This document shows, one piece after another, positions 5,488-62,289 of a DNA stretch of 64,000 bases. The stretch is from positions 108,852 through 172,851 of the forward strand of contig CAWGPU010000004.1 of the NCBI GenBank assembly GCA_963824615.1, written 5' to 3'. The notes below the pieces were generated by a model that saw only the letters and a program-made list of their open reading frames with translations, was not told where the DNA came from and made no database searches. The DNA comes from an uncultured Haloplasmataceae bacterium. GTDB lineage: Bacteria; Bacillota_I; Bacilli_A; Haloplasmatales; Haloplasmataceae. A program made the translations under genes and the position numbers. Within the stretch, counting starts at the first letter, position 1; every line of letters begins with the position of its first letter.

Positions 5488-5656
5488 CTTTATGAACTCC
5501 TTGCTACTTTTATTACTATGTTTACAATCAATAACTAAATTAATGGATAGTTTATTTAAATTATAGGGTTTCTGGCATAAGAAATCTATTTGGTATGGGA
5601 GTAAAAAAGTATAGCTAAAATAATTAAAAATAAAGGAAGCTTGAAAGAGGAGAAAG

Positions 5657-13020: not shown

Positions 13021-13124
13021 AGAGTTAATATGGAAGATAATATTAACTTTTTTAAATATATCAATCATTATTCATTGATAATCAAACAAATGTTTGCTAT
13101 AATGTATATAGGGGAGGTGGTAAT

Positions 13125-20689: not shown

Positions 20690-20961
20690 AAAAATGTTAG
20701 AAAATTACTTCTGATGTACATATAACTCGATTACTTTTTAACAATAGAAATAAATAAATAGTATCTATCATTAAAATGAGGATTAACGCAATATTAATCT
20801 GATATATTAGAGATACACATTAAAAACTCAATTCAACAAATTTTCCTGAAGTTTAAATTCAAGTTAAATAGAAGTTTCTAGATAAACAGGTAAAATAAGT
20901 GTTATAATTTATATTATCCAGGAAATAAACATCATATAATATATTAAAAGGAGGATACATC

Positions 20962-21402
20962 GTGAATAAGAAATTAAATTATACAGCGGTTAAATTGATC
21001 ATAACGGCAGTCATTTTAATAGGCGTAGGTATTTGGTTATTTTATATTTTTTCCAGTGGTGCTAAAGAACCAGTTGTCAATATTTCTGATAGTTCTTTTA
21101 AAGTAACTGGAATGTATGGGAAAACGTATAATTTTTCCGATATAACTTCTATTACTTTAGAAAGTTCTCTTCCAAAAATTGAAAAAAGAACAAATGGTTA
21201 TAGCCTTCATGGAGTATTAAAGGGAACATTCGTATTAGATAGTTTAGGGACTTGCCGTTTATTTCTAAGTAATGAAACAGAACCTTTTATATTTATTAAC
21301 ATTAATAATTCTTATGTCATTATCAATTTTTCCGATATTACTAAGACCCAAAGTACCTATCAACAGTTACTTGACAATTGGCAAAACTTTAGTCAAAATT
21401 GA
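20962..21402 (+). CDS. hypothetical membrane-anchored protein (146 aa)
   Basis: AAAGGAGGATACATCGTG RBS and an N-terminal TM helix. No family recognised. Confidence 0.4.
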   Translation: MNKKLNYTAVKLIITAVILIGVGIWLFYIFSSGAKEPVVNISDSSFKVTGMYGKTYNFSDITSITLESSLPKIEKRTNGYSLHGVLKGTFVLDSLGTCRLFLSNETEPFIFININNSYVIINFSDITKTQSTYQQLLDNWQNFSQN

Positions 21403-29490: not shown

Positions 29491-30273
29491 TTAACAAAAA
29501 TTATAAGGTGGCCATGGCCCTGAACATTCGATGATTATTCCACAATCCTGATAATTTTCTTTAAGTTGATTAATGGAATTCTGAAATTCATCGATTTGTG
29601 TTTGGTTAATTAAAACCGCACAGTTTAATATCATTTTTTCCTGAACACAAGTAATTTCTTTTGCCAGTAGTTTATTAGATTTAAGCTCTTTACAATAAGG
29701 TTTAACAGTCTCTATGATAGAATTAGCCGATGCAAATATTTTTTTCTCAACCTTATTATCTAAATCAATATCGAACTTCTTTTTAAGGAAAAAAGCTGCT
29801 CCTTTTGGTTTATTAAATAAACTTGCCGCAAAAGCAGTAATCTCTGCATTCATGGCTGTTTCCTTAAAGTGTTTAACGTCACAGTAAATTTTCACACTAT
29901 GTTCTTCACAATCCCTTAGTGAGTTTAAAGTTTCATTGAACAAATGATAATTTTCCGACAGTGCATCACGTAATCTATTTTCATTATTAAAAAGGGTTAG
30001 AAACTTCATGGGTATGCTGACCTTATTGCCGCTTAACAACTGTAAAATGTTCATAAATTTGCAAGCCTTTTCGGTTAGCCATTTTATGTCCTCACCCTTT
30101 ATTTTTAAATTCTCTTCACTATATTCATTTAAATAGACTTTACTATATATTCCAAACAATCCCTTGTATTCTATTGCGCAAATAGGATGGATATCATCTA
30201 TTCCTTTAAATGAGTTGTTATTTTCATCAAAGTGATTAACAATACAATATAAAAGCAATCCCTCTTCTTCCAA
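29491..30273 (-). CDS. gas vesicle protein, GvpF/GvpL family (third paralog)
   Basis: C-terminal SGPWPPYNF and an N-terminal LYCI-type start, as seen in the other two GvpF/L genes of the cluster. Confidence 0.7.
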   Translation of the reverse strand: MEEEGLLLYCIVNHFDENNNSFKGIDDIHPICAIEYKGLFGIYSKVYLNEYSEENLKIKGEDIKWLTEKACKFMNILQLLSGNKVSIPMKFLTLFNNENRLRDALSENYHLFNETLNSLRDCEEHSVKIYCDVKHFKETAMNAEITAFAASLFNKPKGAAFFLKKKFDIDLDNKVEKKIFASANSIIETVKPYCKELKSNKLLAKEITCVQEKMILNCAVLINQTQIDEFQNSINQLKENYQDCGIIIECSGPWPPYNFC

Positions 30274-30276
30274 AAT

Positions 30277-30627
30277 TTAATTTCCTCCCTCTATTTTTGT
30301 TTCTAATTTTTCCATTCTTTTTAATAGTTTCGTATTTTGTGCTTCAAGTAGTTTCATTTTTTTATTCTCTTCTAATTTTTCTTGTTTTTCAGCATTTAAT
30401 TTCGCCTTAGTTGATAAATTCGGGTCGGACATCCACCAATCTATTCCCATCTCTTTTGCTTTATCTATAGAAGCAATAATTAAACGTATTCTTATCGTCA
30501 GTAATTCTACGTTTGCTATCGCAATACTGATATCTCCCGCTATAACAACACCCTTATCAAGAATTTTTTCGAGTATATCCCCTATTGTACTTGATGAGGT
30601 TGATTGATTTATATAATTTCCTGCCAT
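30277..30627 (-). CDS. gvpJ: gas vesicle protein GvpJ (GvpA-family fold with C-terminal extension)
   Basis: TIGDILEKILDKGVVIAGDISIAIANVELLTIRIRLIIAS is a GvpA/J core. It carries a Lys/Glu-rich tail. Confidence 0.75.
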   Translation of the reverse strand: MAGNYINQSTSSSTIGDILEKILDKGVVIAGDISIAIANVELLTIRIRLIIASIDKAKEMGIDWWMSDPNLSTKAKLNAEKQEKLEENKKMKLLEAQNTKLLKRMEKLETKIEGGN

Positions 30628-30643
30628 TTACTTTCATCCTCCT

Positions 30644-30988
30644 TCACATTAAATTTCCTAGTGGACCCAAATTTAAATTTAAATCTTCCTCTTCAAGTCC
30701 AAATATATCTCTTAATTCTATCATTTTCTCCTCAAGCTTCATGAAAGCTATCCCTAATTGTTCAATCTCCTCGTCATTTACTGTTCCATTTTCCATCCGT
30801 CTCATGGCTTGTTTCTCCATAAGTTTTCTTAATAATTCAATTAATGTTAGAACAAGCTTTGCAAGACCTTGTTCAACACCCTCAGGGTCTGCATTGAGTC
30901 TATTTTTAAATCCATTATTAATATTAGATACTTCACTCATAAAATCATCATTGTCAAAATTAGAATTATCATTCATTTTCATCACCAA
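30644..30988 (-). CDS. gvpK: gas vesicle protein GvpK
   Basis: LAKLVLTLIELLRKLMEKQAMRRMENGTVNDEEIEQLG matches the conserved GvpK core. Confidence 0.8.
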   Translation of the reverse strand: MVMKMNDNSNFDNDDFMSEVSNINNGFKNRLNADPEGVEQGLAKLVLTLIELLRKLMEKQAMRRMENGTVNDEEIEQLGIAFMKLEEKMIELRDIFGLEEEDLNLNLGPLGNLM

Positions 30989-31688
30989 CTTTTGTTAATT
31001 TTACAAAATGATATGGTGACCAGGGGCCACTAAATACAAATTTATAATTTGCGTGTTTGTTTTTTAATTCTTCAACACGAAAAGTAAATTGTTCAATATT
31101 TGTTTTATATACGAGGTATGCTCCATTAAATATTAAGTTGTTTTTAAAAGGTTTAACTAAATTACTCTCGCAAGCTATTTCTATTAATTCTTTATTTATC
31201 TCATCTAAAACAATTTCAATCGCTTTTAGTTGTAATTTTCGATTGAGATATCGTTCATATCTCTTTAACATATATGATTTTGGATTTTCGTTTTCTATCT
31301 TGTCAAACTTATCTTGATGTTCATAATCTAGTTTATAAAATATCTTAACGCCTAATTCAACTTTTCCCTTTACGCGATCAAGATTTTCTATAAATTGTAA
31401 GTAATATTGTGTTAGCATCAATATAACACTATCCTCATTTATACTGATTGTTGAAAAACTAAGGGGTAGTACACTACTAAATACCATCGCACAACTGGCG
31501 ATTTTTTCATGACATTGAAGATTTTCAAAAGTAGGTTCATATCTCGATTTATGGGTTTTACTGACTAAGGCACAGATATCCTCATAATGAATCACCGTTA
31601 TTTTCTTATCATCCATTCCTAATAAATCTATGCATGTATCATCTGAAATTTTTGATGTTATACAATAAATATAATAATTTTCTGTCAT
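30969..31688 (-). CDS. gvpL: gas vesicle protein, GvpF/GvpL family (second paralog)
   Basis: Contains KGKVELGVKIFY and a C-terminal SGPWSPYHF. Confidence 0.75.
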   Translation of the reverse strand: MTENYYIYCITSKISDDTCIDLLGMDDKKITVIHYEDICALVSKTHKSRYEPTFENLQCHEKIASCAMVFSSVLPLSFSTISINEDSVILMLTQYYLQFIENLDRVKGKVELGVKIFYKLDYEHQDKFDKIENENPKSYMLKRYERYLNRKLQLKAIEIVLDEINKELIEIACESNLVKPFKNNLIFNGAYLVYKTNIEQFTFRVEELKNKHANYKFVFSGPWSPYHFVKLTKVGDENE

Positions 31689-31689
31689 C

Positions 31690-31884
31690 TCAATCCGTAA
31701 GCTCCTTCCTATCTCCTCTAATCGTATCTACCGAACTAATGGCTAACCGTAATCCAACATAAATTAAATCAATATTAGCAATTGATATCATGAGATCCCC
31801 ATGGATGAGAATTCCTTTATCAAGCAATCGATCTAGAAGATCAAGGAGGGTCATCTCTTTTTCATTTTCACTTAAATTAGACAT
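31690..31884 (-). CDS. small GvpA-family gas vesicle protein (GvpS/GvpM-like)
   Basis: LLDLLDRLLDKGILIHGDLMISIANIDLIYVGLRLAISS is a GvpA-fold core in a 64-aa protein. Confidence 0.65.
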   Translation of the reverse strand: MSNLSENEKEMTLLDLLDRLLDKGILIHGDLMISIANIDLIYVGLRLAISSVDTIRGDRKELTD

Positions 31885-31888
31885 ACCC

Positions 31889-32122
31889 TCACTCCTCTCT
31901 CATTTCATGTTCTTTTTTATATTTTTTTATTTCCATCAATTTCTCTAAAATAACTGTTTCTTCTGCTTCGTACTCATCTTCTGTTATTTTGCCACTATCA
32001 AACAATTCATATATTTCATCGAGAGCCTCCTTATAGGGAGTCTCATCGTAAAGTTCTTTTTCAGCCTCGTTATAAATTATTTCAAATATCTTTTTTATAC
32101 CTCGGAAAAGCATTGTTATCAT
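31889..32122 (-). CDS. gvpG: gas vesicle protein GvpG
   Basis: 77 aa. MLFRGIKKIFEIIYNEAEKELYDET...GKITEDEYEAEETVILEKL matches the GvpG pattern (helix plus EYEA motif). Confidence 0.7.
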   Translation of the reverse strand: MITMLFRGIKKIFEIIYNEAEKELYDETPYKEALDEIYELFDSGKITEDEYEAEETVILEKLMEIKKYKKEHEMREE

Positions 32123-32140
32123 CTCCCTATAAAATATTAT

Positions 32141-32887
32141 TTAATTAATCTCTATCCGAATATTAGTAAAATTATAGGGAGCCCAAGGACCAGTATAGCT
32201 AAAAATTAGTTTCTCATTATATAATGTTTTAAATTTTTCAACAGTCTCATCAAAAATAGCCTCATTTGCTTTATCAACTAAGAAATAACAATTTAATATA
32301 GTTTTAATCGGTAAATTTTCTTTAAATTTACTTTCAGTAGCTATCTTTTCTAAAGGGGTATAGATTTTTTCACGGTATATTTCTCGTTTTTCTTTTATGG
32401 CAGCTTCTACCATTTTACCAAGTAAAATCTTTTCATTTAATACTTTATTTTCTTCTTTTCCTTCAATTGCTTGCTTAAGTTTCATTATTTTTTCATCTTG
32501 TATATCTTCATCAAAATAGAGAGCATCCCAAGTAATCTTTAACCCTAACTCTACTTGATTTTTTAATCTTCGAATATTCTTCAAAAACAGTTCGTAATTG
32601 GATTTTATGATGATTTCAATTCCTTTTTTGTTATTTGCTACCGTGCCAAAAGCAACAGGAATGATCGTATACTCTTCTAATACTAGATTCAATACCTTTT
32701 GATGGGCCAAAGAATTTTTTCTTGATGGAAGATAATCTATAATTGGTGCATCACTAACAACAGCGGCTATTTCATCTAGATTTATTGTATAAACAGGTGC
32801 ATTAAATCCACAAATAGATGAGGTGCCAAAATTTTTCTTTTCTTTTTCTTTTATGAAACAATATAGATATTTTCCCATTAATGCCAT
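32141..32887 (-). CDS. gvpF: gas vesicle protein GvpF (GvpF/L family, first paralog)
   Basis: Contains LYCF, KNQVELGLKITW and TGPWAPYNF. Confidence 0.8.
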   Translation of the reverse strand: MALMGKYLYCFIKEKEKKNFGTSSICGFNAPVYTINLDEIAAVVSDAPIIDYLPSRKNSLAHQKVLNLVLEEYTIIPVAFGTVANNKKGIEIIIKSNYELFLKNIRRLKNQVELGLKITWDALYFDEDIQDEKIMKLKQAIEGKEENKVLNEKILLGKMVEAAIKEKREIYREKIYTPLEKIATESKFKENLPIKTILNCYFLVDKANEAIFDETVEKFKTLYNEKLIFSYTGPWAPYNFTNIRIEIN

Positions 32888-33165
32888 TACTTATCACCTT
32901 CAACATCAATTATGTCTTGTTGGTTTATATTGGGATTATTTAATTTCTCAATTGCTTCTTCAAATTGTTTATTATCTGATATTAATTTCATATTAATTGT
33001 GTATTTGCCAACGAGTAACTCGCTTTCTTGTGCTTTAATGTTTCCACTAATATTAATCTCTTGCCCCTCGTTACTAACCATATCTTCCATAATTTTAATA
33101 ATACTTTTAATCCTGCTTGTAATAAGACTGATATTATTTATTTTTTCATTTTCAACAGTTGACAT
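32887..33165 (-). CDS. uncharacterised 92-aa protein encoded inside the gvp operon
   Basis: Translationally coupled to gvpF (stop and start share a nucleotide). Acidic. No recognised Gvp family by eye. Confidence 0.4.
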   Translation of the reverse strand: MSTVENEKINNISLITSRIKSIIKIMEDMVSNEGQEINISGNIKAQESELLVGKYTINMKLISDNKQFEEAIEKLNNPNINQQDIIDVEGDK

Positions 33166-33180
33166 TATATCACCTCAATC

Positions 33181-33441
33181 CTAGTCATTATCTACTGTAG
33201 CGCGTTTTCTTGTAGAGATGAGTTCAAAGCTATTAACTTCTTGTTTATCTGTAACATGTATTTCATAAATTTCTACTATGTCTCCAATACCTTTGCGCGT
33301 TGTATACTCTGGGTCTACTAATACCTCACATACTGCCTTCCAATAATGTTCTTCTCTAACTACAGATATGACCCTACAATTTTGATCTAAAACAATTTTA
33401 AAGAATTTTCTTACCCATTCTATGCAATCTATAATGGTCAT
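33181..33441 (-). CDS. uncharacterised 86-aa protein in the gvp operon (possible GvpO/GvpR-like accessory protein)
   Basis: Occupies the position between gvpN and gvpF where B. megaterium has gvpR/gvpO-like genes. Sequence assignment is uncertain. Confidence 0.35.
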   Translation of the reverse strand: MTIIDCIEWVRKFFKIVLDQNCRVISVVREEHYWKAVCEVLVDPEYTTRKGIGDIVEIYEIHVTDKQEVNSFELISTRKRATVDND

Positions 33442-33456
33442 TTTATCCCTCCTTAC

Positions 33457-34425
33457 TCAATCGTTTAAAGTATTGTAAAATACATTATGGATTGACTTAT
33501 TAACAATTTTATATAAAAATGCTTTCTCTGTTTCATCTAATCCATCATTTGATAATTGTGTACCGAATATATCCATACATATTTCCTTTAATGCTGCACT
33601 ATCTGGTGATAGCTTGATTCTCTGTTTACTAATGATATTTGCCATCATCAAACTACTCCGTATGGAAACTAATTTTAAATCCCGCATTTCTTTTCTAATT
33701 TGTTTCGTTATTTTAATGATCTTCTCTGCCTCAGATGATGTTAGATTCGATTTGGAGACTATTATTAATTTTTCAGTTTCCTCGTCCATTGAAGTAATAT
33801 CAATTGTAATCATCCTATCAATTAAGGCATTTGTTGATTTGAATACACCAACATATTCACTAGGGTTACTAGTGAAAATCATTTTAAAATCTTTACTTAT
33901 ATTAATAATTGAATTACCATTTACATTTTCAGGTACCTCTAATATTCTCTCTTCAAGAATTGGGAGGAGGATATTGTTTACTTCAGGGCTAGTTCTGGTA
34001 AATTCATCATAAATAAAGGTATATCCGTTTTTACAAGCGGTAACTAATTTACCATCTGTCCAAAGTTTTTTTTGTTCTTCTTCCCGTTTATATACCGAAC
34101 TGATAAAATTATCGATTACTAAAGTATTCTTGCTTCCATAAAAATTTCCAATCATTTCTGATTCACCTAGTTCCTTACTTCCGCATATATATATTATAGG
34201 GTTACCAAGTTCCTTTGCAATATGGAAGGCAAGAGAAGTTTTACCAACACCTGCAGGTCCTCTTAAGTGTACGGGGTATCCAGTATTTAGATACCATGAT
34301 GCCCGTTCTGATAAACTATTAGTGTAGTCGGTCTGAATGAACATACTTTGATTAAGAAAATTATAGTCTTTGTTTTTACTCACTTTCTCACCACCTATCT
34401 TTATTATTACGGCTAAGCAAGGCAT
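33457..34425 (-). CDS. gvpN: gas vesicle protein GvpN (AAA+ ATPase)
   Basis: Walker A GPAGVGKTS and Walker B-like FIYDEF in the GvpN/CbbQ/NirQ arrangement. The alternative GTG start at 34383 (AGGTGGTGA RBS) may be the true start. Confidence 0.8.
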   Translation of the reverse strand: MPCLAVIIKIGGEKVSKNKDYNFLNQSMFIQTDYTNSLSERASWYLNTGYPVHLRGPAGVGKTSLAFHIAKELGNPIIYICGSKELGESEMIGNFYGSKNTLVIDNFISSVYKREEEQKKLWTDGKLVTACKNGYTFIYDEFTRTSPEVNNILLPILEERILEVPENVNGNSIINISKDFKMIFTSNPSEYVGVFKSTNALIDRMITIDITSMDEETEKLIIVSKSNLTSSEAEKIIKITKQIRKEMRDLKLVSIRSSLMMANIISKQRIKLSPDSAALKEICMDIFGTQLSNDGLDETEKAFLYKIVNKSIHNVFYNTLND

Positions 34426-45641: not shown

Positions 45642-46025
45642 ATGATATATCTTTCAATCGGATCATTTGGTATAATTGGTGCCTTATTACGGTATTATCT
45701 TGGGATTTCTATCCATGAATGGTGGGTATATTCGTTTCCACTAGGAACACTTCTAATTAATTATATTGGCGCATTTACTTTAGGATGGTTTACTTATAAT
45801 GTTGCTCATTTAAAAATTCCTGAATGGTTTCGTATTGGCTTTGCGACAGGGTTAATTGGTTCTTTTACCACTTTTTCAACATTTAGTGTTGAGACGGTGA
45901 ATTTATTAGATAAAGGATTAATTATATATGCTTTAGGGTACGTTGCCCTCAGTTTATTTGGTGGTTTAATGTTTCCTTTCTTAGGATACAGAATGTCTAA
46001 AGTTATCACTAGAGAGGGGGAATAA
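45642..46025 (+). CDS. crcB: fluoride ion channel CrcB/FluC subunit
   Basis: ~125 aa with 4 TM helices and the GFxGxFTTFSTF motif (GLIGSFTTFSTF). Confidence 0.8.
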   Translation: MIYLSIGSFGIIGALLRYYLGISIHEWWVYSFPLGTLLINYIGAFTLGWFTYNVAHLKIPEWFRIGFATGLIGSFTTFSTFSVETVNLLDKGLIIYALGYVALSLFGGLMFPFLGYRMSKVITREGE

Positions 46026-46029
46026 AGAC

Positions 46030-46398
46030 ATGATTTTAAATGGAGTATTGGTAGCTTTTGGAGCGTTCTTGGGAGCGACTAGTCGTTTCGCTGTCAGTAA
46101 ATGGATTGATAATAAAATGACTTCAAAATTCCCCTTTGGGACAATAGCAGTTAATTTATTAGGCTCATTTTTATTGGGTATTATTATCGCAAGTCAGGGA
46201 AATAATCAAATATCATTGTTACTCGGTACTGGTTTTATGGGGTCCTTTACGACTTTTTCGACTTTTAAAGTTGAAAGTATTAAATTAGGATTAGAAAAAC
46301 GATGGTATTTGTTATCAAGATATTTAATTTACAGTTACGGTTTAGGGATTGTTTTAGCGTTTTTCGGCTATTTTATTGGGAAACAACTCTATTACTAA
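46030..46398 (+). CDS. crcB: fluoride ion channel CrcB/FluC subunit (second paralog, heterodimer partner)
   Basis: Contains GFMGSFTTFSTF. 122 aa. Confidence 0.8.
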   Translation: MILNGVLVAFGAFLGATSRFAVSKWIDNKMTSKFPFGTIAVNLLGSFLLGIIIASQGNNQISLLLGTGFMGSFTTFSTFKVESIKLGLEKRWYLLSRYLIYSYGLGIVLAFFGYFIGKQLYY

Positions 46399-46446
46399 AT
46401 GACTTGTTTTATACAATAGTCTTAATATTACATGTTTAGGGAGGTT

Positions 46447-47154
46447 ATGATGGGTGATTTTATTAAATTGGACGGTGTTATTAAACATTATCAAATGGGT
46501 GAGGTAGAAGTAAATGCATGTGATGGAGTTTCTTTTAATATTCAAAAAGGTGAATTTGTAGTCATTGTTGGTCCTAGTGGAGCTGGGAAAACCACTGTTT
46601 TAAATTTAATTGGCGGAATGGACCAATGTGATAAAGGTAATATGGTAATTGAAAATAAAGACATTAGCCAGTATACAAAAAAACAATTAACTACTTATCG
46701 CCGAAATGATATTGGTTTTGTCTTTCAATTTTATAATTTAGTACCAAATTTAACTGCTTTAGAAAATGTAGAACTAGCAGCTCAAATATGTTCAAATTCT
46801 CTTGACCCCATTACTATATTAAAAGAAGTTGGTTTAGAGAACAGAATAAATAATTTCCCATCACAGCTTTCTGGTGGTGAACAACAACGCGTTTCTATTG
46901 CTAGAGCTTTGGCTAAAAATCCTAAATTACTGCTTTGTGATGAGCCAACTGGAGCATTAGATGATGAAACCGGAAAATCAATTTTAAAATTATTATATAA
47001 AACATGTAAAGATAAGTTGATGACAGTAGTTGTTATCACTCATAATCATGCTATAACTCCCATTGCTGATAGAGTCATTCAAATTAGGAGTGGAAAGGTT
47101 ATTTCGATTTTTGAAAATCTTCATCCACAGCCTGTTGAAAGGATTGATTGGTGA
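46447..47154 (+). CDS. ABC transporter ATP-binding protein (MacB/FtsE/LolD-like)
   Basis: Walker A GPSGAGKTT, Q-loop, signature LSGGEQQRVSIARAL and Walker B LLCDEPTGALD. GGGAGG RBS. Confidence 0.8.
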   Translation: MMGDFIKLDGVIKHYQMGEVEVNACDGVSFNIQKGEFVVIVGPSGAGKTTVLNLIGGMDQCDKGNMVIENKDISQYTKKQLTTYRRNDIGFVFQFYNLVPNLTALENVELAAQICSNSLDPITILKEVGLENRINNFPSQLSGGEQQRVSIARALAKNPKLLLCDEPTGALDDETGKSILKLLYKTCKDKLMTVVVITHNHAITPIADRVIQIRSGKVISIFENLHPQPVERIDW

Positions 47155-49607
47155 TGGTTAAAGCCTATACAAAAACAATCATCAGGCAAATTACATTTAA
47201 TTTCCATAGATACTTTTCCATCTTGTTAATAGTTGCATTAGGGGTCAGTTTTTATTCTGGTCTGCGTTCAACTAGTCCTAACATGCAAATAACCGCAAAT
47301 GATTATTTAAGTGATCAAAATGTGATGGATTTTAATATTGTATCTCAACTGATGTTTACGAGTGATGATGTACTTGCCATTAAAGAAAACCCTTTAATCA
47401 AAGGGATCATGCCTAGTTTTTATACCGAAGCGCAACTAGAATTAAATGATGCTAGTTTAACGGTAAATGTCCATTCGCTTGATACTAGTTTAAAAGGCAA
47501 TGATGAGAATAATATAAATCAACCCAATTTATTAAAAGGACGTTTTCCTGATACGAATGCCGAATGTTTGATTGATGAGAAATTAATGAAATCAGAAAAT
47601 TTCAAAATTGGTGACCAAATTACTTTAGCAGGTACAAATTTAAAAGCACCAATTTTAACAATCGTTGGAGTGGCGAACAGCCCATTATATATCTCTATTG
47701 AGAGAGGAGTTAGCTCAAACGGGGATATCAATGGTTTCATTTTAGTGAATCAAGATGCCTTTAATACACTTTACTATACGAATCTCTATGTGACTATAGA
47801 TAAAACAGGTCTTTCTCGCTTTTCAAAAGAATATAAAAATAAAATTCAGGCTGTTAAAAAGCAATTAGAAACTATAGGCGAAACTAGGAGTGAAATAAGA
47901 GCACAAGACTTGGGCAATCCAAATTTACCTTCGAAATGGATTATTTCAGATTTATTTCAAAATATTGGATTTAGTTCGTATTTAGATGATACACAACGAA
48001 TTTCGGCTGTAGGAAATGTCTTTCCTTTAATTTTCTTTTTAGTTTCCTCACTTGTCAGCTTAACATCTATGACAAGAATGGTTGAAAATGATAGGACAGA
48101 AATTGGAATTTTTAAATCATTAGGATATAGTCGTTTTGCGATAACACGAAAATATTTGTTTTATGCCCTGTCAGCCAGTATTATAGGTGGTGTCGCTGGA
48201 TTTCTAGTTGGAGTAAATTTATTTCCCAAAGTTATATTTAATGCCTATGGTATTTTGTATCACTTGATGCCTCTTGAAATTAGTTTTAGTTATTCACTTG
48301 CGATTACCTCAATTCTTGCAGCCATCCTAGTTATAACGATACCAGCTTATTTCGCTTGTTTACGAAGTTTTGTTTCTTCTCCAGCCAATTTAATGAGACC
48401 TAAAGCTCCTGACCCAGGTAAAAGAATATTTCTGGAAAAAATAAACTTTTTGTGGACGCGATTAAAATTTATTCAAAAAGTCACTGCGCGTAATCTATTT
48501 AGATATAAAAAAAGGTTGTTAATGACAGTTATTGGAATCGCAGGATGTACCGCTTTACTATTAACAGGTTTTGGTTTACGTGACTCGATTAGTTCAATTA
48601 TTGACCGTCAATTTAAAGAAATAAGAACTTATGATGCAGAAATTTATTTAAATAATCATCTTACAAATGATTCATTAGCACAGTTCAAAAAGACTGTAAA
48701 GATAAACAGTATGGTTAAGGATACATTTTATATTGACCAAGAATCTTTAAAGATTAGTTATAAAGGAGTAAATAAAGACCTCTATTTAATTATCCCTGAA
48801 AATGCAACATCACTCAATTCATTCATCACATTAAGAACGCGTCTTACTCATGAGGATGTTAATCTCGATAATAATTCAGTTGTGTTAACTGAGAAAATAG
48901 CCACACTTTTAGGCATTCATATAGGGGATACTATTACACTAGAAAATAATCAGTACCAAATCGTAACGGTAAAAGTATCCGGTATTGTTGAGAATTATCT
49001 TTATCATTATGTCTATATGTCACCGCAATTGTACGAGTCGTTATTTAATCAAACAGTACACTATAATGTTTTATTAACGAAACTAACGAATACAAGTGAT
49101 AGTGCTGAGAAACAGTTGGGAAAAGATTTTACAACCGAATCTCAAGTTCAAACGGTACATTTTATTTCCCAAATAGAATATCATTTTAATAATATGATCA
49201 GCACATTAAATGATGTCGTATATGTTTTAATTATTTCAGCTGCACTGCTTGCATTTTTAGTGTTATTTACCTTAACGAATATCAACATCGATGAACGAAA
49301 ACGAGAGTTAGCAACGATAAAAGTATTAGGATTTTATGATAAAGAGGTGTCCTCTTATATATACCGTGAAAACTTTATACTCACCTTTATTGGTATTATA
49401 GCGGGATTAATATTAGGGTATTTTCTACTTCATTACGTAATAGTCACAACAGAAACAGATATTGTGATGTTCTGCCGTAATATTAGTTGGATGAGTTACA
49501 TTAACGCGATTGCCTTAACATTTGTTTTTGCGATAATAGTAAATGTGATTATGCATCTAAGAATTCATAGAATTGATATGATTGAATCATTAAAAAATGT
49601 CGAATAA
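47154..49607 (+). CDS. ABC transporter permease with two FtsX-like domains (MacB-type)
   Basis: ~818 aa with duplicated 4-TM FtsX modules separated by large extracytoplasmic domains. The start overlaps the ATPase stop. Confidence 0.7.
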   Translation: MVKAYTKTIIRQITFNFHRYFSILLIVALGVSFYSGLRSTSPNMQITANDYLSDQNVMDFNIVSQLMFTSDDVLAIKENPLIKGIMPSFYTEAQLELNDASLTVNVHSLDTSLKGNDENNINQPNLLKGRFPDTNAECLIDEKLMKSENFKIGDQITLAGTNLKAPILTIVGVANSPLYISIERGVSSNGDINGFILVNQDAFNTLYYTNLYVTIDKTGLSRFSKEYKNKIQAVKKQLETIGETRSEIRAQDLGNPNLPSKWIISDLFQNIGFSSYLDDTQRISAVGNVFPLIFFLVSSLVSLTSMTRMVENDRTEIGIFKSLGYSRFAITRKYLFYALSASIIGGVAGFLVGVNLFPKVIFNAYGILYHLMPLEISFSYSLAITSILAAILVITIPAYFACLRSFVSSPANLMRPKAPDPGKRIFLEKINFLWTRLKFIQKVTARNLFRYKKRLLMTVIGIAGCTALLLTGFGLRDSISSIIDRQFKEIRTYDAEIYLNNHLTNDSLAQFKKTVKINSMVKDTFYIDQESLKISYKGVNKDLYLIIPENATSLNSFITLRTRLTHEDVNLDNNSVVLTEKIATLLGIHIGDTITLENNQYQIVTVKVSGIVENYLYHYVYMSPQLYESLFNQTVHYNVLLTKLTNTSDSAEKQLGKDFTTESQVQTVHFISQIEYHFNNMISTLNDVVYVLIISAALLAFLVLFTLTNINIDERKRELATIKVLGFYDKEVSSYIYRENFILTFIGIIAGLILGYFLLHYVIVTTETDIVMFCRNISWMSYINAIALTFVFAIIVNVIMHLRIHRIDMIESLKNVE

Positions 49608-50469: not shown

Positions 50470-51801
50470 TTGAATGGATCATCATTTTATAAAAAATCAA
50501 CATTACTTATATTAACAAATTTAACAACAGGTATATTAAGTTTTTCCTTTTCTGTTATTTTATCACGTAAAATTGGTGCTGAAGGAATGGGATTATATAG
50601 TTTAGTGCTTCCTATCAGTAGTTTACTTCTTAGTGTTATTTCAGGAGGATTATTAGTCGCTGTTTCAAAAGTCGTCGCAGAATATTATTTCAAAAGAGAA
50701 ATGAATAATTTGAAAAAAATTATCAAGACAACCCTGATTTTTAATATCATATTATCTCTTTTTGTCATTTTTTTTGCTTACTTATTTTCTTACCAAATAA
50801 GTATATATATAGTTAGAGATGCACGGACTGTTTATGCGCTGCGATTTATCTTTATTTCAATCGTTGTAATGACACTGTCAAATACTTATAAAGGTTATTT
50901 TTATGGAACTACTAATGTGAGCGTCCCTGCTTTCATAGATATTGTGGAAAAAGCGGTTCGGATAATTTTTTTATTAATCATCTTTAAAATGACTTTTGTT
51001 TCGAGTATAACAACTTCAATAACAACCGCCTATTTAGTATTTTTTATAGGTGAATTAACATCATTGATTTTATTATACATATATTTTAAGTTAGATATTA
51101 AACTCTTAAAAAAAACAAATGAAAGAATTGAAGATGGTCTACAATTGCTTTACAATATTTTTTCAATTTCCTTACCTTTAATGATCACTGAATTAATTTC
51201 TTCTTCTCTATTTACAATCTCTTCACTTATTTTACCAAGAAGATTACTAAAGGCGGGTTTTAATTATAACGAAGCACTGGCATTAATTGGTCGTTTTGCT
51301 AGTATGTCCATGCAAATTGTCTTTTTTCCAATGGTTATTATTTTTTCGATTACAACGATTCTAATTCCTGATTTATCGAGGAGTGTCAGTCAAAATGATA
51401 TTTATTCAATTGAAAAGAGAATTTCTCAAGTATTAAAAATCTCTTTTTTATTAGGTGTATTTGTTTTTATCATCTGTTTTATATTTGGAAATGATTTAGG
51501 TAGAATCGTTTATCAACGTGATGATTTAGGTCAGTACATCCGTTTTATGGCATTTAGTGCACCATTAATCTATACATCCGCTACAACGCGTGGTATTTTG
51601 AATGGTCTTGGAAAACAGAAAATAATTTTAAAATATTCTTTACTTATTTCAGTATTACAAGTTGTTTTACTTTATATTTTAGTCGCAATTCCACAAATTA
51701 ATATATTTGGTTTTGGAATTACCATCATATCAACTACATTCATATCATTATTCTTTTATATAAGAGAAATCAATAAAGAAATTCAAATAAAAATCTTTTA
51801 A
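50470..51801 (+). CDS. MOP-superfamily polysaccharide/lipid II flippase (SpoVB/MurJ-like)
   Basis: 443 aa with about 12-14 TM helices. The N-terminal pattern KKSTLLILTNLTTGILSFSFSVILSRKIGAEGMGLY is typical of SpoVB/Wzx-type proteins. Confidence 0.55.
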   Translation: MNGSSFYKKSTLLILTNLTTGILSFSFSVILSRKIGAEGMGLYSLVLPISSLLLSVISGGLLVAVSKVVAEYYFKREMNNLKKIIKTTLIFNIILSLFVIFFAYLFSYQISIYIVRDARTVYALRFIFISIVVMTLSNTYKGYFYGTTNVSVPAFIDIVEKAVRIIFLLIIFKMTFVSSITTSITTAYLVFFIGELTSLILLYIYFKLDIKLLKKTNERIEDGLQLLYNIFSISLPLMITELISSSLFTISSLILPRRLLKAGFNYNEALALIGRFASMSMQIVFFPMVIIFSITTILIPDLSRSVSQNDIYSIEKRISQVLKISFLLGVFVFIICFIFGNDLGRIVYQRDDLGQYIRFMAFSAPLIYTSATTRGILNGLGKQKIILKYSLLISVLQVVLLYILVAIPQINIFGFGITIISTTFISLFFYIREINKEIQIKIF

Positions 51802-51883: not shown

Positions 51884-52621
51884 ATGAAAGGTCTAGAATT
51901 ATTAAAATTACCTACTTTAAATCCCTCATTCATAGTGTGGCCAACACTTCTTTATGACGAGAATCATGTGATTTTAGTTGACTGCGGTTATCCTGGGACT
52001 TATGAGGAGTTAAAAATGGTGTTATTAGATAAAGGATTTTCTTATGATGATTTAACACATATCATTATTACACATCATGATATAGATCATATCGGTAATT
52101 TAAGTACAATCATAAAGCATCATCCTGAGATTAAAGTCTTAGCAAGTTATATTGAAGCGCCATATCTTACAGGCAATAAAGAACCCATTAAATTATCCCA
52201 AAAGGGATATTATGATAACCTAATGCAAACTGTAGGTCTGTTGCCCTCTCCTAAACGTGAACTTGTTAAAGAAGTAATAGAAAATTTAATAATTAATCAG
52301 GTCACAGTTATACATGACAATGAGCTATTACCATTTTGCGGGGGAATCAAAGTGATTTATACACCAGGTCATACACCGGGCCATGTTTGTTTATATTTAG
52401 AAAGCTATAAAACCCTTATATCAGGAGATGAATTAAATGTCGTAGAAGGGATATTATATGGTCCCAAACCTCAATTTACTCAAAATATGACAACAGCAAT
52501 AGAATCTTTATCCAAAATAGTTAAAAATGATATACGTTCAATTTATTGCTATCATGGCGGAATTTATCAAGATAATCCTAATTTACGAATTATACAATTA
52601 TTAACAATTGATGAATATTGA
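51884..52621 (+). CDS. MBL-fold metallo-hydrolase
   Basis: HHDIDHIGN fits the HxHxDH zinc motif, with downstream His and Asp residues. AAGAGGAAAG RBS before the ATG at 51884. Confidence 0.7.
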   Translation: MKGLELLKLPTLNPSFIVWPTLLYDENHVILVDCGYPGTYEELKMVLLDKGFSYDDLTHIIITHHDIDHIGNLSTIIKHHPEIKVLASYIEAPYLTGNKEPIKLSQKGYYDNLMQTVGLLPSPKRELVKEVIENLIINQVTVIHDNELLPFCGGIKVIYTPGHTPGHVCLYLESYKTLISGDELNVVEGILYGPKPQFTQNMTTAIESLSKIVKNDIRSIYCYHGGIYQDNPNLRIIQLLTIDEY

Positions 52622-52680
52622 TAATAGGGAAAAAAAGAATCACTTGATCTTAAAAGTGATTCTTTTTCTAATTAATTTGT

Positions 52681-52854
52681 CTAAAGTAAAATGAGTAATA
52701 ATAGTATCCCTAAACCAATCAGTGCCCAGTACCATGGTCTAAAAAAAAATCTTCTACCGAAACAGCACCAAGGTCTATAAGGATAGCCATACCATGGTCG
52801 AAATCTTCTATAGTAACCGTATTGTGCAAAAATTCCCATTCTCCTCCACCACAT
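52681..52854 (-). CDS. small Tyr/Arg/Pro/Trp/Cys-rich protein with hydrophobic C-terminal tail (57 aa, MWWRRMGIFAQYGYYRRFRPWYGYPYRPWCCFGRRFFFRPWYWALIGLGILLLLILL)
   Basis: AGGGGTGA RBS 5 nt upstream. It is paralogous in composition and motif (CCFGRR / CGCFGRF, hydrophobic tail) to the 53010-53192 product. It is below the ORF track cutoff. Confidence 0.4.
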   Translation of the reverse strand: MWWRRMGIFAQYGYYRRFRPWYGYPYRPWCCFGRRFFFRPWYWALIGLGILLLLILL

Positions 52855-53009
52855 ATAATCACCCCTTATCTATAGTAGTATATGTTTTTAGGTACAATTT
52901 TCTTGTATTAACCGCCCCTTAATATTTAAATAATGTTTTTATCTTTGATGAATTTGACCTATTTAGATAAAAGACTCTATTCTATTTTAGAATGGAGTCT
53001 TTCAGCTTA

Positions 53010-53192
53010 TTAAATGAAACCGAAAAGTAACCCTAAACCAATACCCGTTGCGAAGCCATATCCACCACCAAAGCCAAAGCCACCATACCCGAATCTTCCA
53101 AAACAACCGCATGTAGGTCTACAACATATAGGTCTACAGCATATAGGTCGACAAATAGTTGGGCAACATCTTCTGTATCCGTAATATCCCAA
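53010..53192 (-). CDS. small Cys/Pro/Gly/Tyr-rich protein with hydrophobic C-terminal tail (CRPICC x3 repeats)
   Basis: TTG start preceded by AGGAGGTG. Repeats CCPTICRPICCRPICCRPTC are followed by a GYGGFGFGGGYG stretch and a hydrophobic tail. Confidence 0.4.
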   Translation of the reverse strand: MGYYGYRRCCPTICRPICCRPICCRPTCGCFGRFGYGGFGFGGGYGFATGIGLGLLFGFI

Positions 53193-53349
53193 GTTAACAT
53201 CACCTCCTGTATCTTTTATATGTTAATATATGATGAAACTCATTTTCAAGAATGTATAATACTCCTCTTTCTAAGTAAAATAATCATTATATAACAGGTA
53301 CATTTAGGAAAAAACTATAAAAAAAAGAGGTAATGTTCTATTACCTTCT

Positions 53350-53742
53350 TTATTGTTTAAAGAAATTACGAAATAAATTTCCATAACCTAATATGTTTTG
53401 TAGATTATTAGGTCCAAAACCATAGGGTTGATGTTGATTATTGATATGATTGAATTGACCTTGTTGGCTATATGGATTAAATTGACCAAATTGACCTTGA
53501 TGATTGTAAGGATTAAATTGATTATGATTATTATATGGATTAGATTGATTTTGATTCATAAATGAATGTCCTTGATTATACGGATTATAATTATTTTGAT
53601 TGTATGGATTCATATAAGGATTATTAAATTGATTCTGCATAAAGTTATTGTTACCGCCAAAAAATTGTTTCATCATACCTACACCACTTAGTAATGATTG
53701 AATGGTTCCCATATTTTTTAGCCCAAATGAAAGTAAATTCAT
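53350..53742 (-). CDS. Asn/Gln/Pro/Tyr-rich low-complexity protein (NPY/NQ repeats), putative spore coat/crust-type protein
   Basis: AGGAGGTAACAC before the ATG. The upstream minus-strand sequence ACattctaattacatttaaCATAccTTA fits the sigma-K consensus (AC-17-CATAnnnTA). Confidence 0.5.
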   Translation of the reverse strand: MNLLSFGLKNMGTIQSLLSGVGMMKQFFGGNNNFMQNQFNNPYMNPYNQNNYNPYNQGHSFMNQNQSNPYNNHNQFNPYNHQGQFGQFNPYSQQGQFNHINNQHQPYGFGPNNLQNILGYGNLFRNFFKQ

Positions 53743-53777
53743 GTGTTACCTCCTTTATTGATTTTCATTGACTATTA

Positions 53778-53805
53778 TAAGGTATGTTAAATGTAATTAG
53801 AATGT
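53778..53805 (-). promoter_or_regulatory. sigma-K-type (late mother-cell) promoter candidate for the N/Q-rich gene
   Basis: Minus-strand sequence AC-N17-CATACCTTA lies about 35 nt upstream of the RBS. Confidence 0.35.
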
Positions 53806-54173
53806 AAGGACATCTGTATATAGAATTTAAGGGATTATTTAAAAAAATATCTTTATTTTATAGACAATGTCTCTCATTTTCATTATACTTGTTTTATAAG
53901 GGTAATTTAGTACACGAGTTTAGTAGAAATTCTTGATTGATGAAATTGTGGGGATAGTTTCATTAATAAAGTACTAAATTAACAGTTTTTAGTAAAAATT
54001 AATAAATTGTCAGTTTCTTAATAGAAACACATCGGAAATTTATGATTAAATAATTTTCTTATATTACAATTGCAAAATTAAAATGCACAGATATGATTTA
54101 GAAAAAGTGAATTATGAGAAATTTTTATTATTTTTCAATATAAGTGGGATTAATTTTATAAGAGGAGAAGTCT

Positions 54174-55415
54174 ATGTATAATAAAAAATCAATTGAGGCA
54201 GTAGATAATTCGATTTTTAAAGGAACATTTATGAAACCCTTAAATGAAAGTTATTCTCTTGCTAATATTCCAGGTACAATAATTAACAACTTTGGAGGAC
54301 ATAGCAATAATATTTTGCCTGTAGATGTTTTTGGAAAATTCCAAAAAAAATATGATAAAATTGTTTTATTTGTGCTTGATGGATTTGGTTATAGTGCATT
54401 TAAAAAATTCTATCATAAATCAACATTTTTAACCAATGTGGTTAAAAATGGAGTAGTGTCCAAGTTAACGACTCAATTTCCCTCAACGACATCCGCTAAT
54501 ATTACAACTTTTCATACAGGACTCCCCGTTAGTTTAAGCGGGGTTATAGAATGGTTCTATTATGAGCCTGTAATTGATAGTGTTTATAGTCCGTTATTAT
54601 ATAAAAAAGCCAAAGATGAGAATGAACTTTTGTCAATAGAGGCTGAAAAAATATTGCCAACAGAAAATTTGTATCAGCAACTGGTTGTTCCTTCTTATGT
54701 TTTTCAATTAGATCTTTATAATCAAGGAGCTTATTCACATCTTATGCAAAAGGGAAGTCAAACAGTAGATTTTAAAAATTTAGAAGATGGATTAAGCCAA
54801 TTAAAGGAAGTCCTAAAAAAAGATGAAAAATCTTACAGTTATTTTTATCATTCTGATTTTGATTCTGTATCCCATAAGTTTGGACCAAATGCAAAAGAGA
54901 CTGAGGAAACTATCACAAACATACTAAAATCTTTAGATCACTTTTTTGCTGATCTTTCTGCTAAAAATACACTATTTATGTTAACTGCTGATCACGGACA
55001 GACTACAGTTGTAAAAGAAAATGCAATTTATATAAATAAGCAATATCCGGAAATTTTACCTTACATAAAAAAGAATAAAGAAGGTGAATATATTATCCCA
55101 TGCGGGTCATTTAGAGATATGTTTTTACATATTGAAAAAGGACATGTTGATGAAGTTTTAACATTTTTGCAAGAAAAATTAAAAGGAAAAGCTGAGGTTT
55201 ATAAAGTACAAGAATTAATCGAAGCTGGTATATTTGGAGAACATGTTCCATCTATGAAGTTTTTAGAAAAGATAGGTGATATTGTAATATTAGCCTATGT
55301 TGACCAAGCAATATGGTGGTACGAAGAAAATAAATTTTTTGTTAAACACCAAGGAATGCATGGTGGACTAACAAAAGATGAGTTAGAAATTCCTTTTTTA
55401 GTTTACCCTTATTAG
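54174..55415 (+). CDS. alkaline-phosphatase-superfamily metalloenzyme (type I phosphodiesterase / nucleotide pyrophosphatase-like)
   Basis: Contains VLDGFGYS, the nucleophile region TQFPSTTSANITTFHTG and the metal-ligand motifs HSDFDSVSHKFG and LTADHGQT. Confidence 0.55.
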   Translation: MYNKKSIEAVDNSIFKGTFMKPLNESYSLANIPGTIINNFGGHSNNILPVDVFGKFQKKYDKIVLFVLDGFGYSAFKKFYHKSTFLTNVVKNGVVSKLTTQFPSTTSANITTFHTGLPVSLSGVIEWFYYEPVIDSVYSPLLYKKAKDENELLSIEAEKILPTENLYQQLVVPSYVFQLDLYNQGAYSHLMQKGSQTVDFKNLEDGLSQLKEVLKKDEKSYSYFYHSDFDSVSHKFGPNAKETEETITNILKSLDHFFADLSAKNTLFMLTADHGQTTVVKENAIYINKQYPEILPYIKKNKEGEYIIPCGSFRDMFLHIEKGHVDEVLTFLQEKLKGKAEVYKVQELIEAGIFGEHVPSMKFLEKIGDIVILAYVDQAIWWYEENKFFVKHQGMHGGLTKDELEIPFLVYPY

Positions 55416-61857: not shown

Positions 61858-62289
61858 TTAAACGCCACCAATACCTGTAGGAGTAGCGATTTCTTGTAAG
61901 CCTACATTACCTGATTTAAGGGTTGCTCGTATCAAATAGATGTCAGCAATCACAGAAAAGACTCGGGAAGTTAGTAAGTCTTCTGCTGCACTTAATGTAT
62001 TTTTATTGACAGATGTTTTACTATTTTTCAAATCATCATAAGCTTTTTTAGCAGTGCTTAAATCAATAAAATCTGAGCAAGCCGAAATAAATACAGAAAC
62101 AATGAGTATATTGTGTGCTTCATTTTTGATGTTTATGTCGTAAAGAATATCTAAATGCGTTGATTCTATCGATAAAATGACCGCTATTAAGGACAAAAAA
62201 GCACTGAAATCATTTAGTCTTGAGAGTCCAGTAGGTACAGGCATTATTTTCACTTCCAAAAGATATGAATACTTTCCTACTATAATCAT
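61858..62289 (-). CDS. hypothetical protein (143 aa)
   Basis: ORF only. N-terminal hydrophobic segment. Confidence 0.3.
   Translation of the reverse strand: MIIVGKYSYLLEVKIMPVPTGLSRLNDFSAFLSLIAVILSIESTHLDILYDINIKNEAHNILIVSVFISACSDFIDLSTAKKAYDDLKNSKTSVNKNTLSAAEDLLTSRVFSVIADIYLIRATLKSGNVGLQEIATPTGIGGV

Follow-up and report, generated by a model that had tools for sequence, protein, structure and literature searches.

Three orphan families of micro-proteins, with conserved regulatory elements of sporulation type, near spoVB in a Haloplasma-like lineage of Bacilli

A 64-kb stretch of DNA from an uncultured Haloplasmataceae bacterium (contig CAWGPU010000004.1, positions 108,852 to 172,851; the whole stretch is hereafter called the window) carries, close to the sporulation gene spoVB, three small genes that define three new families of orphan micro-proteins in a little-studied lineage, whose regulatory signature is conserved and of sporulation type. 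From their sequences, we propose that the products of these open reading frames (ORFs), ORF1, ORF2 and ORF3, are spore-envelope micro-proteins made in the mother cell, partly anchored in a membrane and capable of being cross-linked, a reading to which we assign a probability of about 0.42. Its two components carry different weights: we slightly favour the view that the three genes are expressed specifically in the mother cell during sporulation, and we place a structural role in the spore envelope a little short of even odds. An earlier note on this DNA had described the three products as coat-layer or cross-linked matrix proteins. The neighbouring spoVB, the -10 boxes of mother-cell type, the lack of signal peptides and the Cys/Tyr/basic composition, which fits cross-linkable coat material, speak for that proposal, whereas the predicted tail-anchored architecture of ORF1 and the non-canonical -35 spacing upstream of ORF1 and ORF2 speak against it. 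The genes, as read from the ORF listing and its translations, and spoVB are the following:

52681-52854, minus strand: ORF1, 57 aa, ATG start
53010-53192, minus strand: ORF2, 60 aa, TTG start
53350-53742, minus strand: ORF3, 130 aa, ATG start
50470-51801, plus strand: spoVB (stage V sporulation protein B), scoring 430.8 bits as a TIGR02900 equivalog (cutoff 372.3 bits)

The three genes and their orthologues

The three ORFs exist as the earlier note had drawn them, with translations that agree; all lie on the minus strand, which it had left unstated. It had also placed ORF1 below the cutoffs for gene calling, which is roughly right: ORF1 has no public gene call, and its exact sequence was not found in a collection of 15 billion proteins. 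In public gene calls ORF2 is represented by its +1 frame (53033-53200, minus strand), a 55-aa Val/Asp/Leu-rich protein (P0001); the substitution pattern and the spacing to the ribosome-binding site (RBS) ruled out this frame as the true gene.

Homologous loci were compared with the window, in which the G+C content is ∼29%; the loci that carry these genes all have 25-31% G+C. The L007 locus, from a metagenome-assembled genome (MAG) labelled Haloplasma contractile and located by a genome scan with the neighbouring phosphodiesterase (63% identity), has the same gene order as the window: spoVB, MBL-fold hydrolase, ORF1, ORF2, ORF3, phosphodiesterase. In L010-L012, ORF2 and ORF1 sit between the phosphodiesterase gene and spoVB. 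ORF1 is convergent with spoVB in L009, a locus from a fermentation metagenome that was retrieved by a metagenome DNA scan with the ORF1 profile, a scan that gave no other locus, and it adjoins the phosphodiesterase gene in L002, from a Bacilli MAG. L014 (GCA_003586005.1) has ORF3 and ORF2 homologues together, and in L013 an ORF3 homologue is followed by the beginning of an ORF1 copy. Orthologues of ORF1 are found in L007, L009, L010 (P0005), L002 and L013, and those of ORF2 in L007, L010 and L014. The pairs ORF3-ORF2, ORF2-ORF1 and ORF3-ORF1 persist in contexts that otherwise differ.

That ORF1-ORF3 are genuine genes under purifying selection is, on comparison of these sequences, almost certain. 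The reading frame is kept in the orthologues from L007, L009, L010, L002, L013 and L014. Between the window and L007, the differences at first, second and third codon positions number 19/11/23 for ORF1, 13/11/27 for ORF2 and 22/16/45 for ORF3, and 16-22 codons per ORF carry synonymous changes only. The small proteins are 54-68% identical in global alignment and the flanking enzymes 63-72%; for ORF3, a local tblastn alignment across the variable-length repeat region gives a lower value, 41%. The constraint on the ORFs is thus comparable to that on the flanking enzymes and they are therefore true protein-coding genes in the frames given by the earlier note. Shine-Dalgarno motifs precede ORF1 (GGGGTGA), ORF2 (AGGAGGTGA) and ORF3 (AAAGGAGG), and these RBS motifs are kept at the correct spacing across genomes; the TTG start follows GGAGGTGA in three of the four ORF2 orthologues. 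The opposite view, that these are spurious open frames in low-complexity DNA, can invoke the omission of ORF1 from public annotation and the calling of ORF2 in another frame, which is likewise open. It is refuted for practical purposes by the frame-specific conservation, the third-position bias and the many synonymous changes, by the maintained RBS motifs and the terminator behind each gene, and by the homologues of ORF1 (63 aa) and ORF2 (50 aa) in L010, which an independent pipeline called in these same frames.

A consensus terminator scan gave none in the region; direct folding revealed hairpins followed by U-runs:

52630-52669, minus strand: ORF1 terminator, hairpin and U-run, -16.3 kcal/mol, z = -4.6
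52966-53007, minus strand: ORF2 terminator, hairpin, -17.4 kcal/mol, z = -4.5
53324-53351, minus strand: ORF3, weak hairpin (-8 kcal/mol, z = -1.1) and a U8 run read from the sequence

The ORF1 terminator is shared with the convergent MBL-fold gene and is therefore bidirectional. As each ORF has its own Shine-Dalgarno motif and its own hairpin, the three genes form three monocistronic units. Rfam scans gave no match, either at the gathering threshold over the whole window or at E <= 1 over 52500-54200, and an explanation by a structured RNA or riboswitch was dropped on this ground.

Promoters and the spoVB neighbourhood

The main evidence on function comes from the regions upstream of the three genes, which contain the following elements:

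52876-52884, minus strand: ORF1 -10 box CATATACTA, 21 nt upstream of the ATG (mother-cell sigma-E/K type)
52904-52908, minus strand: ORF1 ATACA/ACACA block, 19-20 nt upstream of the -10 box, a possible -35 element (spacer AC-N20/21)
53224-53232, minus strand: ORF2 -10 box CATATATTA
53250-53257, minus strand: ORF2 block AwACAnyC, with ACA 20 nt upstream of the box and its C at the canonical 17 nt
53778-53812, minus strand: ORF3 promoter TGTCCTTAC-N17-CATACCTTA, of the canonical form AC-N17-CATAnnnTA (pattern at 53778-53805), 35 nt upstream of the start
53281-53305, minus strand: 25-nt intergenic block AAATGTACCTGTTATATAATGATTA between the ORF3 terminator and the ORF2 promoter (in L007 at about 5517-5541, minus strand)

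The window contains 79 copies of CATAnnnTA, four of which lie at most 60 nt upstream of a gene start on the right strand; three of these four belong to ORF1, ORF2 and ORF3. Each of the three boxes is kept in orthologous intergenic regions amid diverging flanks. For ORF1 the consensus is CATAT[AGT][CAT]TA in five genomes (window, L007, L009, L010, L013); the L002 copy lacks a CATA box and has a TATAAT-like box. The ORF2 box is part of a conserved 13-mer, CATATATTA[AT]CAT, in the window, L007, L010 and L014, and the ORF3 box follows CATA[CA][CTA][TGC]TA in five genomes. The fourth well-placed box, CATATAATA (20933-20941, plus strand), stands 20 nt before the gene at 20962-21402, which encodes a 146-aa membrane-anchored protein with no family match and also has an extended -10 element, TGTTATAAT, just upstream.

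We took as a sigma-K promoter an AC at -35 and CATAnnnTA at -10, 16-18 nt apart and just upstream of a gene. Among the three genes only ORF3 has this arrangement (53778-53805), which is conserved in L007 and L014, and it is also the sole well-placed AC-N16-19-CATAnnnTA in the window. The sequence TGTCCTTAC stands exactly 17 nt from the box in the window, L007 and L014; L015 has GC-N17 and L016 TC-N16. The sigma-K-like promoter announced by the earlier note is in this sense there, and conserved in three genomes; its frequency is discussed below. Set beside the sigma-K regulon promoters of B. subtilis and C. difficile, ORF3 thus matches AC-N17-CATAnnnTA, whereas the AC of ORF1 and ORF2 is separated from the box by 20-21 nt. 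In C. difficile, promoters mapped for sigma-E and for sigma-K share a CATA-type -10 and differ at the -35 (ATA for sigma-E, AC for sigma-K) (Saujet et al., PMC3789822). Several of its mapped promoters resemble those described here (Table S7, PMC3789822): CATATATTA occurs verbatim in the sigma-K promoters of CD1898 and CD2409, and CATATACT, the first eight bases of the ORF1 box, in that of CD0564. The mapped sigma-E promoter of cspBA (AATACA-N19-CATATAC) has the same layout as that of ORF1.

The divergent gene for the type I phosphodiesterase provided a control. It is preceded by a conserved promoter of sigma-A type, TAGACA-17-TATACT (53861-53889, plus strand; about 5925-5955 in L007), from which it follows that footprinting in this region picks out promoters and that ORF1-ORF3 differ from the housekeeping type. 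As a sigma-E control, the sequences upstream of spoVB were aligned: L007 and L009 share TCATAwT...TAATAAAAT, and the window copy does not. Readings of the ORF1-ORF3 promoters as ECF-type, sigma-H, sigma-F/G or sigma-A were rejected by eye, the -10 or -35 motifs that they require, or the spacings, being absent or unconserved. The block AAATGTACCTGTTATATAATGATTA is identical in the window and L007, between which the proteins are ∼63% identical, and parts of it are retained in L010 and L014. It may be a sigma-A-type promoter with an extended -10 (TGnTATA), or a regulator or operator site.

A further line of evidence is the position of ORF1, which adjoins spoVB or sits one gene away from it in four genomes (window, L007, L009, L010) and overlaps it convergently in L009 and L010. 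One may still suppose that ORF1-ORF3 are small membrane or stress proteins with no link to sporulation, that the CATA boxes serve another sigma factor or are a coincidence of AT-rich DNA fixed by descent, and that the adjacency to spoVB is inherited gene order and nothing else. The spacing of the -35 elements of ORF1 and ORF2, the sigma-A-like extended -10 block upstream of ORF2, the TATAAT-like box of the L002 ORF1 copy, the lack of other sporulation genes in the window and the non-sporulation contexts of the distant homologues all suit this view. It does not readily account for the concentration of three of the four well-placed CATAnnnTA boxes of 64 kb in front of these three genes, each footprinted across genomes, for the different, conserved sigma-A type of the adjacent phosphodiesterase promoter, or for the exactly canonical -35/-10 geometry of ORF3 in three genomes, and we consider it unlikely.

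Protein features and a possible place in the spore envelope

Inspection and hydropathy revealed no N-terminal signal-peptide-like segment in ORF1, ORF2 or ORF3, and acidic residues are absent from ORF1 and ORF2. The 40 N-terminal residues of ORF1 are rich in Arg, Trp, Tyr and Phe and carry a net charge of +9 with no Asp or Glu; the 17 C-terminal residues, WYWALIGLGILLLLILL, are apolar. Alignment of the orthologues shows an invariant motif, YYRR[FY]R..YGYP.R, together with a Cys; throughout the family the tail measures 17-18 residues with a mean Kyte-Doolittle value of 2.3-3.3, acidic residues are absent, and the net charge lies between +8 and +13. AlphaFold2 (AF2), run on the single ORF1 sequence, returned a C-terminal helix at residues 40-56 (pLDDT 84-95) and an N-terminus of low confidence. 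ORF1 thus combines a hydrophobic C-terminal tail of 17-18 residues, for the ∼17-22 expected of a single terminal membrane helix, with the lack of a signal peptide and a remainder of positive-inside character, and is a predicted tail-anchored membrane protein rather than a soluble coat protein. By the positive-inside rule, its N-terminal part is placed in the cytoplasm of the producing cell.

Known tiny sporulation proteins offer a partial analogy. SpoVM, a 26-residue amphipathic helix, acts from the mother-cell side to tether the coat's basement layer to the outer forespore membrane, and YjcZ-type proteins join a Gly/Tyr/Cys-rich stretch to a hydrophobic segment. ORF1 is likewise very small with a single membrane-binding segment; it differs in having a helix of transmembrane length at the C-terminus, after a 40-residue Arg/aromatic domain, and matches none of their models. 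In another explanation, the genes are sporulation-specific and their products are not coat material: ORF1 and ORF2 would belong, as tiny proteins of the SpoVM/YjcZ type, to the membranes of the forespore or mother cell and act in membrane organisation, engulfment, cortex synthesis (with SpoVB, the cortex-precursor flippase) or germination, and ORF3 an unrelated late protein. The tail-anchor architecture of ORF1, the mother-cell-type -10 boxes and the tight linkage of ORF1 to spoVB in four genomes, with the convergent overlap in L009 and L010, agree with it. We regard it as improbable nonetheless: no sporulation family of NCBIfam or Pfam was matched at E <= 10, the adjacency to spoVB is gone in L002, L013 and L014, and the extreme Arg/aromatic/Cys composition is atypical of known small sporulation membrane proteins. 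The transporter encoded near the homologues in L014 was considered as a SpoVB and ruled out, being a generic MATE protein.

ORF2 contains nine Cys, three CRPIC pentads, a Gly/Tyr/Phe stretch and a conserved C-terminal tail, G.GLGLLFGF[IF]. The pentads, Cys-Arg-Pro-Ile/Thr-Cys, are encoded by a 15-nt sequence repeated three times in tandem within the gene (53110-53154, minus strand). Members of the family are 50-68 aa long, with 5-10 Cys and 4-8 Tyr, and have kept P.FIC[RH]PI..R.I, a Gly/Tyr-rich middle and the near-invariant tail G.(G/A)LGLL[FL]G[FC][FI]. In the window copy the last apolar run is 27 residues long and Gly-rich; the best 17-residue Kyte-Doolittle window ranges from 1.1 to 1.8 in the family. 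The conserved GLGLLFGF suggests a specific interaction or an interfacial anchor. The earlier note had taken ORF1 and ORF2 for paralogues with a common CFGR(R)F core, and neither point held: hhalign gave a probability of 1.8%, BLASTP aligned six residues, IGLG[IL]L, with E = 0.21, cross-family tblastn gave E about 0.1, and the core is missing from the orthologues of both proteins.

The resemblance of ORF2 to keratin-associated proteins, which the same note had pointed out, is genuine at the level of the C-C-R-P-I pentad and stays below threshold as a family match, with Cys pairs partly lost in L014. ORF2 scored 21.7 bits against Keratin_B2 and 17.4 bits against Keratin_B2_2, for gathering cutoffs of 28.7 and 27, and the L007 orthologue had no match among the Pfam keratin families. 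Being sub-threshold and not fully conserved, the likeness is one of convergence and not of homology. With the mammalian high-sulfur proteins (Keratin_B2, C-C-x-P-x) ORF2 shares the logic of the pentads, CCRPI/CRPIC three times over and encoded in tandem by 15 nt, and disulfide cross-linking of a tough proteinaceous integument is a plausible role for both; it differs in having only three pentads and in their incomplete conservation.

ORF3 has the N/Q/P/Y repeats and the small size that had been claimed for it, and the repeats are visible in the DNA as imperfect copies of 27-45 nt. In the alignment of P0006-P0010 an invariant N-terminal module, FGLKN.GTI...K, is followed by an N/Q/P/Y repeat region of variable length and by a short conserved basic/aromatic C-terminus. 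The AF2 model made with the ORF3 family alignment (mean pLDDT 47) is structured only in a helix at residues 3-28; the protein beyond the helix is predicted to be disordered.

Small size, the Cys richness of ORF2 and an ORF1 N-terminus that resembles cationic Trp/Arg antimicrobial peptides could also be read as marks of secreted or toxic peptides, namely bacteriocin or RiPP (ribosomally synthesised and post-translationally modified peptide) precursors of SCIFF-like type, Arg/Trp-rich antimicrobials or type I toxins; an ABC exporter pair is encoded at 46432-49607. This explanation is very improbable. The proteins have neither a leader/core design nor a double-glycine site, and it is their C-terminal tails that are conserved. 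The neighbours in the window, L007, L010 and L014 are spoVB, MBL-fold hydrolase, phosphodiesterase, MATE transporter and ABC ATPase, none of which is common to all contexts, and no maturase, immunity gene or dedicated transporter is conserved alongside in four or five contexts. A RiPP or SCIFF assignment would call for a conserved maturase next door and a family model, and NCBIfam gave no match; nor was there a signal of an Rfam or antisense RNA. Across a protein divergence of 45-72% the locus has remained stable and in synteny, and is not mobile.

As spore-envelope components, the trio is by analogy closest to the crust and exosporium proteins rich in Cys and to the coat proteins rich in Tyr/Gln, with ORF1 recalling the SpoVM/YjcZ type. 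CotC/CotU, CotG, YppG and GerQ of B. subtilis are low-complexity coat proteins rich in Tyr, Gln or Pro. ORF3 is similar to them in being Tyr/Asn/Gln/Pro-rich, basic, predicted to be disordered and placed behind a sigma-K-type promoter; it differs in the lack of detectable homology and in its own FGLKN.GTI...K module, known from five other clusters only. Low-complexity proteins of this kind are substrates of dityrosine or transglutaminase cross-linking in Bacillus coats (PMC7944565). CotY/CotZ (B. subtilis), ExsY (B. cereus) and CdeC/CdeM (C. difficile) are described as Cys-rich proteins without signal peptide that are made in the mother cell, belong to the sigma-K class in C. difficile and, as has been proposed, become fixed by disulfides once the mother cell has lysed (PMC6101409, PMC4950064, PMC3789822). 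With these, ORF2 has in common the richness in Cys and the absence of a signal peptide, without sequence similarity in Pfam or NCBIfam; it is far smaller (50-68 aa) and has CRPIC pentads, Gly/Tyr and a hydrophobic tail that they lack.

On the spore-envelope reading, transcription in the mother cell would depend on sigma-K-RNA polymerase for ORF3 and on sigma-K or sigma-E for ORF1 and ORF2; it is the promoters that point to the mother cell as the compartment of synthesis. ORF1 would insert post-translationally through its C-terminal helix as a tail-anchored protein, exposing its basic aromatic domain at the site of coat formation, the side of the outer forespore membrane that faces the mother cell. 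ORF2 might be tethered by its GLGLLFGF tail and offer its clustered Cys and Tyr for disulfide or dityrosine cross-links after lysis of the mother cell, and ORF3 would dock by its N-terminal helix and supply a disordered Asn/Gln/Pro/Tyr matrix. In this scheme we infer the choice of sigma factor, the time at which the genes are expressed, the topology of the proteins in the spore, the cross-linking and the coat role. A bolder version, which we hold to be quite improbable, would see here a clade-specific, membrane-proximal layer of the spore integument, built of micro-proteins below 130 residues that have no counterpart in other lineages: ORF1, tail-anchored and poly-Arg/aromatic, as a SpoVM-like marker of the outer forespore membrane, ORF2 as a membrane-tethered analogue of keratin-associated proteins, locked by disulfides or dityrosines, and ORF3 as a prion-like Asn/Gln/Tyr-rich protein condensing on both, in a convergent 'cornified envelope'.

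A number of observations weigh against a place for these proteins in the spore envelope. (i) The full sigma-K pattern is not enriched in the window, with 3 found for 3.5 expected; since its mere occurrence is at chance frequency, the weight of the ORF3 pattern rests on position and conservation, and the earlier note's promoter claim has to be tempered to this extent. (ii) The spacer between the conserved AC and CATA is 20-21 nt in ORF1 and ORF2, against 16-19 nt in the mapped C. difficile set, a range that is our own count of Table S7 (PMC3789822); as this AC falls just outside the mapped spacer range, the assignment of a sigma factor to ORF1 and ORF2 is uncertain. (iii) The number of Cys in the ORF2 family falls from 10 to 5, and most of the Cys pairs are gone from the L014 orthologue, weakening the case for a role centred on disulfides. 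(iv) The ORF2 tail comprises 11-17 apolar residues in three of the four orthologues and is short for a membrane span. (v) A scan of ∼45 other ORFs of the window recognised no sporulation gene besides spoVB, which is the one gene here from which the organism may be presumed to sporulate, and a scan of the neighbours of the ORF3 and ORF2 homologues in L014-L016 found no recognisable sporulation gene. (vi) The cultured Haloplasma contractile is reportedly non-sporulating.

What is known of related bacteria points in both directions. Turicibacter groups with Haloplasma at the base of the Bacilli (PMC4807225), and T. sanguinis forms true heat-resistant spores under a Bacillus-type control by late sigma factors (PMC13492147). 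Members of a neighbouring order, Erysipelotrichales, sporulate even though most Bacillus coat proteins are absent there (PMC10868615), so that these lineages may have coat components that have escaped recognition. A last point on the negative side is that T. sanguinis is reported to retain much of the canonical coat repertoire of B. subtilis (PMC13492147).

Rarity, other genes of the window and significance

Homologues of the three proteins appear to be very rare, and from the searches made here the families are confined to a small, low-GC, Haloplasma-like clade of Bacilli. A word-indexed search of 5.8 billion proteins gave no match for ORF2, only itself for ORF3, and a single cluster, P0005, for the ORF1 profile. 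For ORF3, an exhaustive phmmer search of 1.84 billion representatives retrieved five true homologue clusters (P0006-P0010) and one spurious match. Searched at E <= 10 against Pfam and NCBIfam, the three proteins of the window and their L007 orthologues matched no family, the exceptions being Keratin_B2 for ORF2 and DUF6600 for ORF3 (E = 0.48). None of the Pfam-A and NCBIfam models of known coat, crust, exosporium and small sporulation families (CotY/Z, ExsY, CdeC, CotF, YppG, YjcZ/tiny-TM, SpoVM) was matched.

In four other loci, the ORF3 or ORF2 homologues have within a few kb of them a member of a fourth uncharacterised family (∼126-148 aa), which may belong to the same functional set as ORF1-ORF3. 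It directly adjoins the ORF3 homologue in L013 and L016 and is 8 kb distant in the window. Its members have hydrophobic helices and the motif FIDLSTAKKAYDDL...LLTSR.FSV...IYLIRATL, with no Pfam match above threshold, and a CATACTATA box lies upstream of the L016 copy. The copies are located as follows:

61858-62289, minus strand: window
1392-1778: L014
105-485: L010
4466-4912: L016
1-231: L013

Elsewhere in the window, a gas-vesicle cluster (29491-34425, minus strand) comprises GvpL/GvpF paralogues at 29491-30273, 30969-31688 and 32141-32887 and a GvpN-like ATPase of the AAA_5 type at 33457-34425 (minus strand). Mobile-element genes include an IS607-like pair (12382-14360, plus strand), in which a MerR-type serine resolvase is followed by a TnpB/Cas12f-like protein with a TNB domain, and a PD-(D/E)XK family transposase-like gene (7954-8865, plus strand). 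Two crcB fluoride-channel genes stand in tandem at 45642-46398 (plus strand), with no fluoride riboswitch found by Rfam at the gathering threshold in the 64 kb. A gene at 26748-29282 (plus strand) encodes a large protein of the 7TM (HisKA_7TM) type that also carries GGDEF and HD-GYP domains and is likely involved in the turnover of c-di-GMP (cyclic di-guanosine monophosphate).

The locus illustrates how such genes escape annotation: ORF1 is uncalled, ORF2 is called in the wrong frame, and most ORF2 homologues start with TTG. The CCRPI pentads of ORF2 offer a clear example of convergence with the keratin-associated proteins of vertebrates, and TGTCCTTAC-N17-CATA is a sequence handle for finding the late mother-cell regulon in these genomes. 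Should the proposed role prove wrong, three orphan micro-protein families of a rare lineage would be left, of limited interest. In the Haloplasma/Turicibacter branch of Bacilli, the composition of the spore surface has so far been deduced only by homology to the Bacillus and Clostridioides models; if the proposal is right, ORF1-ORF3 would be the first candidate structural spore-envelope proteins specific to this branch.

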